NCBI GenBank assembly: GCA_000004985.1
Contig: GG739072.1
Reading direction: 5' to 3' (one strand)
DNA length: 8,349 bases
From: Naegleria gruberi
Lineage: Eukaryota
Each line of letters starts with the position of its first letter. The first letter of the stretch is position 1. Below the pieces are notes generated by a model. That model was not told where the DNA came from. It saw nothing but the letters and a program-made list of their open reading frames with translations, and ran no database searches. Below, one piece after another: positions 1,584 to 8,349 of this stretch. The position numbers were made by a program, and so were the translations under genes.

Positions 1584-4500
1584 NNNNNNNNNNNNNNNNN
1601 NNNNNNNNNNNNNNNNNNNNNNNNNNNNNNNNNNNNNNNNNNNNNNNNNNNNNNNNNNNNNNNNNNNNNNNNNNNNNNNNNNNNNNNNNNNNNNNNNNNN
1701 NNNNNNNNNNNNNNNNNNNNNNNNNNNNNNNNNNNNNNNNNNNNNNNNNNNNNNNNNNNNNNNNNNNNNNNNNNNNNNNNNNNNNNNNNNNNNNNNNNNN
1801 NNNNNNNNNNNNNNNNNNNNNNNNNNNNNNNNNNNNNNNNNNNNNNNNNNNNNNNNNNNNNNNNNNNNNNNNNNNNNNNNNNNNNNNNNNNNNNNNNNNN
1901 NNNNNNNNNNNNNNNNNNNNNNNNNNNNNNNNNNNNNNNNNNNNNNNNNNNNNNNNNNNNNNNNNNNNNNNNNNNNNNNNNNNNNNNNNNNNNNNNNNNN
2001 NNNNNNNNNNNNNNNNNNNNNNNNNNNNNNNNNNNNNNNNNNNNNNNNNNNNNNNNNNNNNNNNNNNNNNNNNNNNNNNNNNNNNNNNNNNNNNNNNNNN
2101 NNNNNNNNNNNNNNNNNNNNNNNNNNNNNNNNNNNNNNNNNNNNNNNNNNNNNNNNNNNNNNNNNNNNNNNNNNNNNNNNNNNNNNNNNNNNNNNNNNNN
2201 NNNNNNNNNNNNNNNNNNNNNNNNNNNNNNNNNNNNNNNNNNNNNNNNNNNNNNNNNNNNNNNNNNNNNNNNNNNNNNNNNNNNNNNNNNNNNNNNNNNN
2301 NNNNNNNNNNNNNNNNNNNNNNNNNNNNNNNNNNNNNNNNNNNNNNNNNNNNNNNNNNNNNNNNNNNNNNNNNNNNNNNNNNNNNNNNNNNNNNNNNNNN
2401 NNNNNNNNNNNNNNNNNNNNNNNNNNNNNNNNNNNNNNNNNNNNNNNNNNNNNNNNNNNNNNNNNNNNNNNNNNNNNNNNNNNNNNNNNNNNNNNNNNNN
2501 NNNNNNNNNNNNNNNNNNNNNNNNNNNNNNNNNNNNNNNNNNNNNNNNNNNNNNNNNNNNNNNNNNNNNNNNNNNNNNNNNNNNNNNNNNNNNNNNNNNN
2601 NNNNNNNNNNNNNNNNNNNNNNNNNNNNNNNNNNNNNNNNNNNNNNNNNNNNNNNNNNNNNNNNNNNNNNNNNNNNNNNNNNNNNNNNNNNNNNNNNNNN
2701 NNNNNNNNNNNNNNNNNNNNNNNNNNNNNNNNNNNNNNNNNNNNNNNNNNNNNNNNNNNNNNNNNNNNNNNNNNNNNNNNNNNNNNNNNNNNNNNNNNNN
2801 NNNNNNNNNNNNNNNNNNNNNNNNNNNNNNNNNNNNNNNNNNNNNNNNNNNNNNNNNNNNNNNNNNNNNNNNNNNNNNNNNNNNNNNNNNNNNNNNNNNN
2901 NNNNNNNNNNNNNNNNNNNNNNNNNNNNNNNNNNNNNNNNNNNNNNNNNNNNNNNNNNNNNNNNNNNNNNNNNNNNNNNNNNNNNNNNNNNNNNNNNNNN
3001 NNNNNNNNNNNNNNNNNNNNNNNNNNNNNNNNNNNNNNNNNNNNNNNNNNNNNNNNNNNNNNNNNNNNNNNNNNNNNNNNNNNNNNNNNNNNNNNNNNNN
3101 NNNNNNNNNNNNNNNNNNNNNNNNNNNNNNNNNNNNNNNNNNNNNNNNNNNNNNNNNNNNNNNNNNNNNNNNNNNNNNNNNNNNNNNNNNNNNNNNNNNN
3201 NNNNNNNNNNNNNNNNNNNNNNNNNNNNNNNNNNNNNNNNNNNNNNNNNNNNNNNNNNNNNNNNNNNNNNNNNNNNNNNNNNNNNNNNNNNNNNNNNNNN
3301 NNNNNNNNNNNNNNNNNNNNNNNNNNNNNNNNNNNNNNNNNNNNNNNNNNNNNNNNNNNNNNNNNNNNNNNNNNNNNNNNNNNNNNNNNNNNNNNNNNNN
3401 NNNNNNNNNNNNNNNNNNNNNNNNNNNNNNNNNNNNNNNNNNNNNNNNNNNNNNNNNNNNNNNNNNNNNNNNNNNNNNNNNNNNNNNNNNNNNNNNNNNN
3501 NNNNNNNNNNNNNNNNNNNNNNNNNNNNNNNNNNNNNNNNNNNNNNNNNNNNNNNNNNNNNNNNNNNNNNNNNNNNNNNNNNNNNNNNNNNNNNNNNNNN
3601 NNNNNNNNNNNNNNNNNNNNNNNNNNNNNNNNNNNNNNNNNNNNNNNNNNNNNNNNNNNNNNNNNNNNNNNNNNNNNNNNNNNNNNNNNNNNNNNNNNNN
3701 NNNNNNNNNNNNNNNNNNNNNNNNNNNNNNNNNNNNNNNNNNNNNNNNNNNNNNNNNNNNNNNNNNNNNNNNNNNNNNNNNNNNNNNNNNNNNNNNNNNN
3801 NNNNNNNNNNNNNNNNNNNNNNNNNNNNNNNNNNNNNNNNNNNNNNNNNNNNNNNNNNNNNNNNNNNNNNNNNNNNNNNNNNNNNNNNNNNNNNNNNNNN
3901 NNNNNNNNNNNNNNNNNNNNNNNNNNNNNNNNNNNNNNNNNNNNNNNNNNNNNNNNNNNNNNNNNNNNNNNNNNNNNNNNNNNNNNNNNNNNNNNNNNNN
4001 NNNNNNNNNNNNNNNNNNNNNNNNNNNNNNNNNNNNNNNNNNNNNNNNNNNNNNNNNNNNNNNNNNNNNNNNNNNNNNNNNNNNNNNNNNNNNNNNNNNN
4101 NNNNNNNNNNNNNNNNNNNNNNNNNNNNNNNNNNNNNNNNNNNNNNNNNNNNNNNNNNNNNNNNNNNNNNNNNNNNNNNNNNNNNNNNNNNNNNNNNNNN
4201 NNNNNNNNNNNNNNNNNNNNNNNNNNNNNNNNNNNNNNNNNNNNNNNNNNNNNNNNNNNNNNNNNNNNNNNNNNNNNNNNNNNNNNNNNNNNNNNNNNNN
4301 NNNNNNNNNNNNNNNNNNNNNNNNNNNNNNNNNNNNNNNNNNNNNNNNNNNNNNNNNNNNNNNNNNNNNNNNNNNNNNNNNNNNNNNNNNNNNNNNNNNN
4401 NNNNNNNNNNNNNNNNNNNNNNNNNNNNNNNNNNNNNNNNNNNNNNNNNNNNNNNNNNNNNNNNNNNNNNNNNNNNNNNNNNNNNNNNNNNNNNNNNNNN

Positions 4501-6781
4501 NNNNNNNNNNNNNNNNNNNNNNNNNNNNNNNNNNNNNNNNNNNNNNNNNNNNNNNNNNNNNNNNNNNNNNNNNNNNNNNNNNNNNNNNNNNNNNNNNNNN
4601 NNNNNNNNNNNNNNNNNNNNNNNNNNNNNNNNNNNNNNNNNNNNNNNNNNNNNNNNNNNNNNNNNNNNNNNNNNNNNNNNNNNNNNNNNNNNNNNNNNNN
4701 NNNNNNNNNNNNNNNNNNNNNNNNNNNNNNNNNNNNNNNNNNNNNNNNNNNNNNNNNNNNNNNNNNNNNNNNNNNNNNNNNNNNNNNNNNNNNNNNNNNN
4801 NNNNNNNNNNNNNNNNNNNNNNNNNNNNNNNNNNNNNNNNNNNNNNNNNNNNNNNNNNNNNNNNNNNNNNNNNNNNNNNNNNNNNNNNNNNNNNNNNNNN
4901 NNNNNNNNNNNNNNNNNNNNNNNNNNNNNNNNNNNNNNNNNNNNNNNNNNNNNNNNNNNNNNNNNNNNNNNNNNNNNNNNNNNNNNNNNNNNNNNNNNNN
5001 NNNNNNNNNNNNNNNNNNNNNNNNNNNNNNNNNNNNNNNNNNNNNNNNNNNNNNNNNNNNNNNNNNNNNNNNNNNNNNNNNNNNNNNNNNNNNNNNNNNN
5101 NNNNNNNNNNNNNNNNNNNNNNNNNNNNNNNNNNNNNNNNNNNNNNNNNNNNNNNNNNNNNNNNNNNNNNNNNNNNNNNNNNNNNNNNNNNNNNNNNNNN
5201 NNNNNNNNNNNNNNNNNNNNNNNNNNNNNNNNNNNNNNNNNNNNNNNNNNNNNNNNNNNNNNNNNNNNNNNNNNNNNNNNNNNNNNNNNNNNNNNNNNNN
5301 NNNNNNNNNNNNNNNNNNNNNNNNNNNNNNNNNNNNNNNNNNNNNNNNNNNNNNNNNNNNNNNNNNNNNNNNNNNNNNNNNNNNNNNNNNNNNNNNNNNN
5401 NNNNNNNNNNNNNNNNNNNNNNNNNNNNNNNNNNNNNNNNNNNNNNNNNNNNNNNNNNNNNNNNNNNNNNNNNNNNNNNNNNNNNNNNNNNNNNNNNNNN
5501 NNNNNNNNNNNNNNNNNNNNNNNNNNNNNNNNNNNNNNNNNNNNNNNNNNNNNNNNNNNNNNNNNNNNNNNNNNNNNNNNNNNNNNNNNNNNNNNNNNNN
5601 NNNNNNNNNNNNNNNNNNNNNNNNNNNNNNNNNNNNNNNNNNNNNNNNNNNNNNNNNNNNNNNNNNNNNNNNNNNNNNNNNNNNNNNNNNNNNNNNNNNN
5701 NNNNNNNNNNNNNNNNNNNNNNNNNNNNNNNNNNNNNNNNNNNNNNNNNNNNNNNNNNNNNNNNNNNNNNNNNNNNNNNNNNNNNNNNNNNNNNNNNNNN
5801 NNNNNNNNNNNNNNNNNNNNNNNNNNNNNNNNNNNNNNNNNNNNNNNNNNNNNNNNNNNNNNNNNNNNNNNNNNNNNNNNNNNNNNNNNNNNNNNNNNNN
5901 NNNNNNNNNNNNNNNNNNNNNNNNNNNNNNNNNNNNNNNNNNNNNNNNNNNNNNNNNNNNNNNNNNNNNNNNNNNNNNNNNNNNNNNNNNNNNNNNNNNN
6001 NNNNNNNNNNNNNNNNNNNNNNNNNNNNNNNNNNNNNNNNNNNNNNNNNNNNNNNNNNNNNNNNNNNNNNNNNNNNNNNNNNNNNNNNNNNNNNNNNNNN
6101 NNNNNNNNNNNNNNNNNNNNNNNNNNNNNNNNNNNNNNNNNNNNNNNNNNNNNNNNNNNNNNNNNNNNNNNNNNNNNNNNNNNNNNNNNNNNNNNNNNNN
6201 NNNNNNNNNNNNNNNNNNNNNNNNNNNNNNNNNNNNNNNNNNNNNNNNNNNNNNNNNNNNNNNNNNNNNNNNNNNNNNNNNNNNNNNNNNNNNNNNNNNN
6301 NNNNNNNNNNNNNNNNNNNNNNNNNNNNNNNNNNNNNNNNNNNNNNNNNNNNNNNNNNNNNNNNNNNNNNNNNNNNNNNNNNNNNNNNNNNNNNNNNNNN
6401 NNNNNNNNNNNNNNNNNNNNNNNNNNNNNNNNNNNNNNNNNNNNNNNNNNNNNNNNNNNNNNNNNNNNNNNNNNNNNNNNNNNNNNNNNNNNNNNNNNNN
6501 NNNNNNNNNNNNNNNNNNNNNNNNNNNNNNNNNNNNNNNNNNNNNNNNNNNNNNNNNNNNNNNNNNNNNNNNNNNNNNNNNNNNNNNNNNNNNNNNNNNN
6601 NNNNNNNNNNNNNNNNNNNNNNNNNNNNNNNNNNNNNNNNNNNNNNNNNNNNNNNNNNNNNNNNNNNNNNNNNNNNNNNNNNNNNNNNNNNNNNNNNNNN
6701 NNNNNNNNNNNNNNNNNNNNNNNNNNNNNNNNNNNNNNNNNNNNNNNNNNNNNNNNNNNNNNNNNNNNNNNNNNNNNNNNN
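1584..6781. other. Assembly or scaffold gap: 5,198 consecutive N. This is not sequence.
   Basis: Uninterrupted n from 1584 to 6781. The non-round length suggests an estimated gap size from paired reads. Both flanking ORFs run into it. Confidence 0.99.
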
Positions 6782-7318
6782 TGAATATTCCAAAGAATTC
6801 ACAACTTCTGGTGCTTGATATAAATAATCTACTGATCGACTGGAATTGAACTTTGAATTGTTAACACCTAGCTTAACAGCTCTTGAGAAATTACCAATTT
6901 TGTATCGTCCTTCATCCTTAAAGTAGAATATATTCTCTGGTCTCAAATCACAATGGACAAAATCTAAATCATGTAAACGAGAAAGACTTTCGGCAACATG
7001 TAAGCAAACCTTCAAATCATTTGTTTCGTCTATTTCTTTCACTAAATATTCTGCAAGTGAATATTCTGCTTTCGGAATAATTACATAATTTTTCAAGAAA
7101 TCAATATTTCCATTGTCTAATATTGGTACTAAATAATTATCAGTTGCATCTTGTTGGGTATTTTTGATTTTTAAATAGGTTTCGTATTCTTCCCCAATTA
7201 AAATTTTCATCAGAAATTTCTTGGAAGGATCATCCTTCAAGCAAACATTAACGAAGCGTGATTGTTTAAAATTTTCATCGAGTGCTGAATATTTGACGGG
7301 CCACGATTGCTTGTACAT
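6782..7318 (-). CDS. Eukaryotic-type protein kinase-like protein, paralogue of the gene at 7367..8338. Only the N-terminal 179 aa are present and the 3' end is lost in the gap. Atypical motifs: no glycine-rich loop, HCD catalytic loop, and NFS in place of DFG.
   Basis: The ATG is at 7318..7316 (cat on the + strand). An in-frame stop sits 2 codons upstream on the minus strand (TAA, complement of 7322..7324). Translation: MYKQSWPVKYSALDENFKQSRFVNVCLKDDPSKKFLMKILIGEEYETYLKI...LHDLDFVHCDLRPENIFYFKDEGRYKIGNFSRAVKL...YLYQAPEVV. This contains the HxDLKPEN-type catalytic loop (HCDLRPEN), the APE motif and a candidate beta3 Lys (FLMKIL). The ORF is continuous up to the first N. Confidence 0.78.
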
Positions 7319-7366
7319 TTTTTATAATATTCTAATTCGAAACCTTTCAGAATTCAAAAAACAAAA
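7319..7366. promoter_or_regulatory. 48-bp divergent intergenic region that must hold the core promoters or 5' UTRs for both head-to-head kinase genes. It is AT-rich, with a TATAAAA-like motif immediately 5' of the minus-strand ATG.
   Basis: The sequence is ttttataatattctaattcgaaacctttcagaattcaaaaaacaaaa. The reverse complement reads ...gaattagaatattataaaaATG for the minus gene. The plus gene has an A-rich leader, ...ttcaaaaaacaaaaATG. It contains the short palindromes ttcgaa and gaattc and an imperfect inverted repeat, aattcgaaa/tttcagaatt. Confidence 0.4.
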
Positions 7367-8338
7367 ATGAGTGAAGGCCAGTGGAGGTGTGTGATTAAAG
7401 CACATCCTCCCCATGATGTTCTGGAAATTTGTTCTCTACTAAACAGCTTTGTTATTGAAGTTGATAGAATATTTATTTCTAATTGCCAGATTTTTGCTTT
7501 TGCTGGCGTGTGGGAATTAACATTCCCAAGCCGAAACGAGGAAGGAAACGATAGATTTATTGAATTTAATGAATCTACATTCAACAAATTGCGAAGTTAT
7601 TGTTTAAATATTGAAAGACTATTTCTTTCGGGAACCAAAGCTATTAGTACCGAATCTCTGTATCTAAAAATTGTTCTATTATTGGAGGAGGAAGATAATC
7701 CACTGGAGAGGTACAAGTATATTTACAACAAAGTGAAGGAAGCCGAAATATCTTGTGTGCAACACTATTATGAATATTTAGAACACCAATATTTTGTAAT
7801 TATTAGCGAAAAAGCAGAGTGTGATTTAAAAACCTATTTGGAAACGAATGAGTTGAGTTTGGAAGTTAGGATAAATCTCTGTGTACAATATGCTGAGCTA
7901 GTACTAAAATTACATGAGCAGAATATTGTTCATTGCGATTTGAAACCAAGCAATGTATTGGTACTCAAGGATGGCAGTTTAAGGCTAACTGATTTTGAAG
8001 GGTCTTCTTACTTGAAAGATAACAAGAGCTTTTTCAATTCCCATTGTAAATCAATTGGTTACTTTGATGAGACAGTTAGTGTTGAGCAGTTTCAAGACCT
8101 TTTAAATCGTGATTTATTTGCTTTGGGTATTAGTTTTATTGAAATATTTATGTGTAATCCGAATAATCATATTACAACAAAGCACGAATTCATCAAGAGA
8201 AAAGAGTTTGCCAAATATCCATATTCAACAATTTATCANACAGTGGAATCTTTTCTTAAAAACGATCAGTCTCGTAGTATTAAAGATTTAATACATAAAT
8301 TACAGGAAGTTAGCATTGAGTTGAGTTACATGATTTAA
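7367..8338 (+). CDS. Protein kinase-like protein, 323 aa and complete. It has a roughly 130-aa unrecognised N-terminal region and a kinase-fold C-terminal region with HCDLKPSN, DFE in place of DFG, and subdomain IX DLFALG. It has no glycine-rich loop.
   Basis: The ATG is at 7367, with an in-frame upstream stop at 7325..7327 (taa), and the ORF ends at TAA 8336..8338. The translation contains ...LHEQNIVHCDLKPSNVLVLKDGSLRLTDFEGSSYL...DLFALGISFIEIF...RSIKDLI, which corresponds to kinase subdomains VIb, VII, IX and XI. There is one ambiguous base (n at 8239), giving one X residue. The motif order parallels the minus-strand gene: AECDLKTYL...HCDLKP versus AEYSLAEYL...HCDLRP. Confidence 0.8.
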   Translation: MSEGQWRCVIKAHPPHDVLEICSLLNSFVIEVDRIFISNCQIFAFAGVWELTFPSRNEEGNDRFIEFNESTFNKLRSYCLNIERLFLSGTKAISTESLYLKIVLLLEEEDNPLERYKYIYNKVKEAEISCVQHYYEYLEHQYFVIISEKAECDLKTYLETNELSLEVRINLCVQYAELVLKLHEQNIVHCDLKPSNVLVLKDGSLRLTDFEGSSYLKDNKSFFNSHCKSIGYFDETVSVEQFQDLLNRDLFALGISFIEIFMCNPNNHITTKHEFIKRKEFAKYPYSTIYXTVESFLKNDQSRSIKDLIHKLQEVSIELSYMI

Positions 8339-8349
8339 TTATTTCCAGA

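Follow-up and report, generated by a model that had tools for sequence, protein, structure and literature searches.

The window analysed here, the whole stretch of 8,349 nucleotides from contig GG739072.1 of the Naegleria gruberi assembly GCA_000004985.1, holds two open reading frames (ORFs) near its right-hand end, named PLUS and MINUS here after the strands that encode them. They diverge from start codons 48 bp apart, and both encode highly divergent proteins of the eukaryotic protein kinase (ePK) superfamily. PLUS is probably an active kinase, MINUS is a probable pseudokinase, and the arrangement makes co-regulation of the two likely. The pair and its surroundings are laid out as follows.

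7367-8338, plus strand: the PLUS ORF, complete, 323 aa, with ATG at 7367 and TAA at 8336-8338.
7318 down to 6782, minus strand: the 5' part of the MINUS ORF, 179 codons visible, with ATG at 7318, ending just after the APE motif.
7319-7366, between the two start codons: the spacer, 48 bp, 19% GC, TTTTTATAATATTCTAATTCGAAACCTTTCAGAATTCAAAAAACAAAA.
1584-6781: an assembly gap of 5198 N, 62% of the window, which covers the 3' portion of MINUS and whatever separates it from the left-hand gene described below.

Real sequence makes up only 3.1 kb of the window, the rest being N, and the pair sits entirely on the right-hand contig at 6782-8349. The gap explains both why the pair begins at 6782, the first real base past it, and why MINUS is cut short before any stop codon. 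An earlier note on this DNA, which had described head-to-head ORFs with starts 48 bp apart, gave the spacing exactly; it mentioned neither the gap, nor the asparagine at the DFG position of MINUS, nor the eukaryotic origin of the DNA.

Both frames are far from what chance would leave open. At this base composition (31-34% GC) stops should occur about once in 13 codons, and the probability of meeting none is about 3e-12 over the 323 codons of PLUS and about 4e-7 over 178 codons of MINUS at local composition. The start codons of both genes lie in the A-rich context AAAAATG, and in-frame stops are found just upstream, 14 codons before the ATG of PLUS and 2 codons before that of MINUS. PLUS and MINUS are most likely intron-less genes that are transcribed divergently. 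With start codons 48 bp apart, their promoters must either overlap or each lie within the other gene, and co-regulation is for this reason likely. From the geometry, the spacer is presumed to be a shared or overlapping divergent promoter and 5' untranslated region. The pair resembles the bidirectional gene pairs of compact eukaryotic genomes in its divergent orientation and very short AT-rich spacer. Head-to-head pairs are common in gene-dense genomes, and the arrangement by itself does not imply functional coupling.

PLUS scores 67.1 bits (E=2.2e-18) against the Pfam Pkinase profile (PF00069), whose curated gathering cut-off is 31.7, and its kinase core is a single domain spanning about residues 95-315. 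The catalytic residues were mapped by alignment with the best library matches (alignment A2) and with kinases from the PDB (TTK, StkP). The β3 lysine is K101, whose counterpart in TTK is the lysine of AIK, and the αC glutamate has a plausible candidate. The catalytic loop, aligned with the best library matches, reads H189-C-D191-L-K193-P-S-N196 and is of the Ser/Thr type, DLKPxN, while D249 is the αF aspartate. Two motifs depart from the standard form, with D209-F-E replacing DFG and F-D-E replacing APE.

The fold test, with AlphaFold and Foldseek, covers PLUS only. The AlphaFold model, built on alignment A2, has a predicted template-modelling score (pTM) of 0.66, and its predicted local distance difference test values (pLDDT) exceed 90 in the C-lobe and fall below 50 in residues 1-92. 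The β1/Gly-loop/β2 hairpin is absent from the model. When this model is compared with the PDB, the top 50 matches are all protein kinases (E about 1e-9, TM score about 0.5) and span CMGC, CAMK, TKL and TK members, among them Pho85/CDK5, PhK-gamma, BRAF, FGFR2 and Abl. The gathering threshold, the predicted bilobal fold and the presence of the Lys, the HxD Asp, the Asn and the DFG Asp together place PLUS in PF00069.

Since PLUS keeps every phosphotransfer residue (the β3 Lys, the HxD Asp, the catalytic-loop Lys and Asn, the DFG Asp and the αF Asp), it would be an active but atypical non-RD Ser/Thr kinase. The HCD motif is typical of DYRK/HIPK-type CMGC kinases, and activation-loop phosphorylation is often not needed by non-RD kinases. 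Being non-RD, PLUS would probably be independent of such phosphorylation. PLUS and MINUS share HCD with the non-RD kinases but show no specific similarity to DYRK/HIPK or to plant or animal immune kinases, the matches of PLUS to Pho85 and CDK5 being generic fold matches. Residues 1-92 of PLUS (7367-7642) have no detectable similarity to anything; two helices are predicted with low confidence at residues 18-36 and 69-88, where the kinase β1/Gly-loop/β2 would be expected. This region may be what is left of a degenerated N-lobe, or a small domain in its own right.

MINUS is recognised by the same Pfam profile at 43.7 bits (E=3e-11; cut-off 31.7). It keeps the β3 lysine (FLMKIL), the catalytic loop HCDLRPEN and the APE motif, and its P-loop region is free of glycine. 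The DFG position is altered.

6887-6895, minus strand: the DFG position of MINUS in alignment A2, G-N-F-S, with Asp replaced by Asn (codon AAT) and Gly by Ser.

Among 52 aligned kinase cores, NFS at this position is found in MINUS alone. In sequence terms, a protein counts as a pseudokinase when at least one of the VAIK Lys, HRD Asp and DFG Asp has been lost (PMC7586955); MINUS, which has lost the metal-binding DFG aspartate, falls under this sequence definition and PLUS does not. The Asn in place of the Mg-binding Asp and the glycine-free P-loop make MINUS a probable pseudokinase or very weak enzyme, and suggest a non-catalytic role, that of a scaffold or an allosteric partner, or else very low activity. 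A similar motif state is seen in human STK40/SgK495, whose DFG region is TNFCL and whose degenerate P-loop is GNSPVP (PMC7586955). MINUS resembles STK40 in the Asn-Phe at the DFG position, in the degenerate P-loop and in the retention of the β3 Lys and HxDxxxxN. The likeness to STK40 and to Tribbles (TRIB) is one of motif state only, with no specific sequence relationship, and is drawn from an incomplete MINUS. A perfect 14-nt direct repeat, TTAAAATTTTCATC, occurs in the N-terminal coding region of MINUS at 7198-7211 and 7266-7279; its copies are read in two frames (..DENF.. and ..MKIL..), and it is probably an AT-rich chance match.

The two proteins are related to each other. BLASTP gives an alignment of 101 aa in which 36% of residues are identical (E=5e-13), and their Smith-Waterman score of 136 compares with 37 ± 6 (maximum 66) for 500 shuffles. 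The earlier note had proposed two related kinase-fold proteins on opposite strands, sharing hinge, catalytic-loop and K(D)(E/G) motifs, lacking a GxGxxG loop, carrying HCD and thus non-RD, and about 70% identical in DNA over short stretches around the catalytic loop. The pairwise alignment and the two Pfam scores bear out the relationship and the fold. The quoted motifs are all present, as the pairs AEYSLAEYL/AECDLKTYL, HCDLRPEN/HCDLKPSN and FKDEG/LKDG, and HCD is found in both proteins. Neither protein contains GxGxxG, and it is not encoded in any further reading frame of 6782-8349, where the sole match to the pattern is off frame and crosses a stop codon; no hidden upstream exon or alternative frame with a Gly-rich loop was found in the same interval. 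This loop is typical of the kinase family and not obligatory. Within the ePK superfamily, PLUS and MINUS are thus typical in passing the Pkinase threshold, and PLUS also in its predicted bilobal fold and catalytic residues, but both stand apart in having no glycine-rich loop, PLUS in its DFE and FDE motifs, and the pair in having no affinity to a named group.

The DNA similarity around the catalytic loop is likewise as had been described, and takes the form of an inverted repeat of 64 nt with 70% complementarity.

6913-6976, minus strand: inverted-repeat arm, the catalytic-loop stretch of MINUS, LHDLDFVHCDLRPENIFYFKD.
7910-7973, plus strand: inverted-repeat arm, the catalytic-loop stretch of PLUS, LHEQNIVHCDLKPSNVLVLKD.

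A second inverted match, collinear with the first, covers 17 nt at β5/hinge with 88% identity. DNA identity is 68% over the best 60 nt and 55% over all aligned codons, and identical residues are encoded by identical codons in 27 of 45 cases, where about 20.5 would be expected from codon usage alone. With 55% identity overall and codon sharing close to this expectation, the DNA similarity reflects mostly protein conservation and AT-biased codons, and it was rejected as a trace of recent duplication.

The match between PLUS and MINUS looks different from its two sides. In all sets with which MINUS was compared, its highest-scoring match is PLUS, at 39.5 bits, narrowly ahead of a Tetrahymena kinase at 39.1; MINUS reaches at most 33.5 bits against about 80 loci from giant-virus metagenome-assembled genomes and at most 28.8 bits against any PDB kinase. 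With PLUS as query, trimmed to the region covered by MINUS, MINUS obtains 40.8 bits, which places it 25th-31st among the top 150 library matches of PLUS, behind unrelated metagenomic kinases at 62, 56 and 54 bits. In the reciprocal comparison that the earlier note had proposed, PLUS is thus the best match of MINUS within the sets compared, and MINUS is not that of PLUS. A neighbour-joining tree (138 columns, 52 taxa) pairs the two as a cherry, both on long branches. The hinge AE..L, HCD and the F-N-S stretch of the activation loop were considered as shared derived characters and rejected, since they occur in unrelated top matches: HCD is found in 32 of the 289 catalytic loops (11%) among the matches of PLUS, hinges of the AE.DL type in P0036, P0114 and P0146, and F-x-S/T-x-C activation-loop motifs in unrelated matches as well.

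These results suggest that PLUS and MINUS are distant relatives, which may have arisen through a local inverted duplication long ago, after which MINUS diverged fast. The asymmetric pattern of matches is what is expected of a fast-evolving, degenerating paralogue, and an old inverted duplication accordingly remains the simplest origin of the pair, though one to which we give roughly even odds. The diverged inverted duplication of the earlier note thus keeps its best match from MINUS and its tree cherry, and loses the reverse ranking and firm bootstrap support. Chance adjacency of two of the more than 265 kinase genes of Naegleria is possible. By our own arithmetic, about 4 adjacent kinase pairs would be expected by chance from some 265 kinases and some 16,000 genes, as far as the numbers given in PMC9928731 allow.

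Neither protein has a close relative in the collections searched. A scan of 1.84 billion cluster representatives with PLUS yielded 8200 matches at E<=1e-3, which are generic kinases; 97 of them reach E<=1e-10, and not one reaches E<=1e-30. High-ranking matches are proteins with several kinase domains and summed scores; the best single-domain matches reach 55-66 bits at about 25-30% identity. These are scattered over Tetrahymena, the fungi Microsporum and Paraphysoderma, a sea-cucumber IRE1-like protein and many unnamed metagenomic proteins. In the PDB, sequence matches are weak and of mixed kind, not exceeding 38 bits for PLUS (bacterial StkP, TTK/Mps1, CaMK1) or 28.8 for MINUS (SNRK, RSK2), with further weak matches to STK10, CDK, RSK and GRK1. 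Neither sequence nor fold matches concentrate in any of the named ePK groups (AGC, CAMK, CMGC, CK1, STE, TK, TKL). The closest homologues, whose phylogenetic clustering the earlier note had proposed to examine, are taxonomically incoherent.

A word-indexed search of 5.8 billion proteins returned nothing for PLUS (E<=1e-3) or MINUS (E<=1e-2). This collection does hold the product of the neighbouring ORF at 2-1583 of the same contig, and since it lacks theirs, PLUS and MINUS seem not to be annotated among the public genes of N. gruberi. The sequence of PLUS contains a single ambiguous base, n at 8239 in codon 291 (CAN, His or Gln), which may be one possible reason why the protein collection has no PLUS gene model.

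The searches bear directly on a different account of the pair, in which PLUS and MINUS are direct local inverted duplicates, members of an expanding lineage-specific kinase family served by one bidirectional promoter. The head-to-head geometry, the collinear inverted matches, the slight excess of identical codons, the best match of MINUS and the tree cherry all fit such an origin, as do the HCD motif, the AE..L..YL hinge and the missing Gly loop common to both proteins. Against it, the cherry is poorly supported, 24-30 proteins match PLUS better than MINUS does over the same region, the shared motifs recur in unrelated matches, and adjacent kinase pairs are expected by chance. No further family member appears among the 1.84 billion representatives searched with PLUS or the 5.8 billion proteins searched with both. 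The expanding family put forward in the earlier note finds no support in these collections of annotated proteins, and the account as a whole is rather unlikely.

On the other side of the gap, the left-hand contig is occupied by an ORF at 2-1583 on the plus strand, open from the start of the window into the gap and hence truncated by it. It encodes a SWIM zinc finger (23.5 bits in Pfam, which exceeds the threshold) and, directly N-terminal to this, a sub-threshold match to a MULE transposase (14 bits, E=0.07). From this domain content it is a Mutator-like transposase-type gene. Its product is 100% identical to the NCBI entry 'predicted protein, partial [Naegleria gruberi]', and no other relative was found in the 5.8-billion-protein search, in IMG/VR or in the PDB. 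As no other relatives were found, the gene may be single-copy or domesticated and not part of an active repeat family. Scans of the window for tRNA genes and Rfam families gave no matches, and the tandem repeats amount to a trivial one of 9 nt. The GC content of the window sequence, 31-38%, fits the 35% reported for the genome of the heterolobosean amoeboflagellate N. gruberi, 40.9 Mb in 1,977 scaffolds (PMC9928731).

The evidence points to two highly divergent ePK genes in divergent arrangement, PLUS probably active, MINUS a probable pseudokinase and the two likely co-regulated, a reading to which we give a probability of about 0.7. Several findings weigh against it. Some 25-30 other kinases match PLUS better than MINUS does in the same region, and the PLUS/MINUS cherry has a bootstrap value of 22% (65 of 300 replicates). 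The Asp to Asn change in MINUS depends on one base (AAT vs GAT) in a small scaffold of possibly low coverage, and MINUS is incomplete, its C-lobe being cut by the gap. PLUS has no recognisable β1/Gly-loop/β2, and residues 1-92 are modelled at pLDDT below 50; with the N-lobe hairpin unrecognisable, ATP binding by PLUS is uncertain and PLUS could also be catalytically dead. Finally, the absence of both ORFs from a protein collection that holds their neighbour's product fits unannotated genes and decaying ones alike.

This last point leads to the proposal that the ORFs are decaying, unannotated pseudogenes on a repeat-rich unplaced scaffold beside a transposase remnant. The scaffold is indeed small and gapped and carries the MULE/SWIM transposase-like fragment, and the motifs are degenerate, with no Gly loop in either protein, NFS in MINUS and DFE and FDE in PLUS. 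Against decay stand two frames that have stayed intact despite the odds given above, start codons in an A-rich context preceded by in-frame stops in both genes, and a PLUS that keeps all catalytic residues and a C-lobe fold predicted with confidence. Decay is improbable, and a little more so than the expanding family.

The best single-domain matches of PLUS, P0036 (66 bits) and P0052 (63 bits), lie on metagenomic contigs with dense genes that mostly lack Pfam domains and with genes for deoxynucleoside kinase (dNK) or uracil-DNA glycosylase (UDG), a giant-virus-like context. The kinase loci on the metagenomic contigs that match PLUS best are the following.

L001, 613-1605 and 4244-5332: two same-strand kinase genes with about 2.6 kb between them.
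L002, 8001-9221: one kinase locus.
L003, 891-2111: one kinase locus.

The dNK or UDG genes are carried by these contigs. Scanned against IMG/VR as a single protein, PLUS gave no relative. A profile scan gave only generic giant-virus kinases at 23-35% identity, the exceptions being short catalytic-loop matches (<=52 aa) of up to 59% identity; relatives at 24-35% identity are encoded on 143 giant-virus contig stretches. That the two genes were acquired from, or are shared with, the gene pool of giant viruses (nucleocytoplasmic large DNA viruses, NCLDV) draws on these matches and on the giant viruses known to infect Naegleria, to judge from the reference list of PMC12344493, but is very improbable, as identity is about 25-31% and limited to the generic kinase core, the other top matches come from ciliates, fungi and animals with no phylogenetic coherence, a shared AT-rich amino-acid composition can inflate scores, the readable 3.1 kb holds no viral hallmark gene and a SWIM ORF without viral relative, and the GC content is host-like.

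For the two divergent ePK genes favoured here, the juxtaposition of a kinase that is probably active with a relative that probably is not invites comparison with known partnerships of kinase and pseudokinase, namely LKB1-STRAD, HER2-HER3 and Toxoplasma ROP18-ROP5. By this analogy, MINUS may modulate PLUS; neighbouring and likely co-regulated genes are what one would expect of a live kinase under the control of its dead paralogue. The likeness to those systems is one of arrangement. A bolder version would make the locus a self-contained, species-restricted and unannotated module, in which an orphan active non-RD kinase and a paralogous pseudokinase that regulates it are co-expressed and share one 48-bp bidirectional promoter, perhaps acquired from or exchanged with giant viruses given that the best matches of PLUS lie on giant-virus-like contigs. 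Such a module is distinctly unlikely.

The kinase superfamily is thoroughly known and N. gruberi is already rich in kinases, with 265 predicted, a count that PMC9928731 gives at second hand. The pair leaves the current view of kinases and of genome organisation unchallenged, and its importance is modest. It would add to the large Naegleria kinome two very divergent kinases that seem to have escaped annotation, a pseudokinase candidate among them, and it offers a small example of orphan kinases without a glycine-rich loop arising in protists. If the products of PLUS and MINUS are co-expressed and interact, the locus would be a compact, naturally occurring pair of kinase and pseudokinase from a deep-branching eukaryote.

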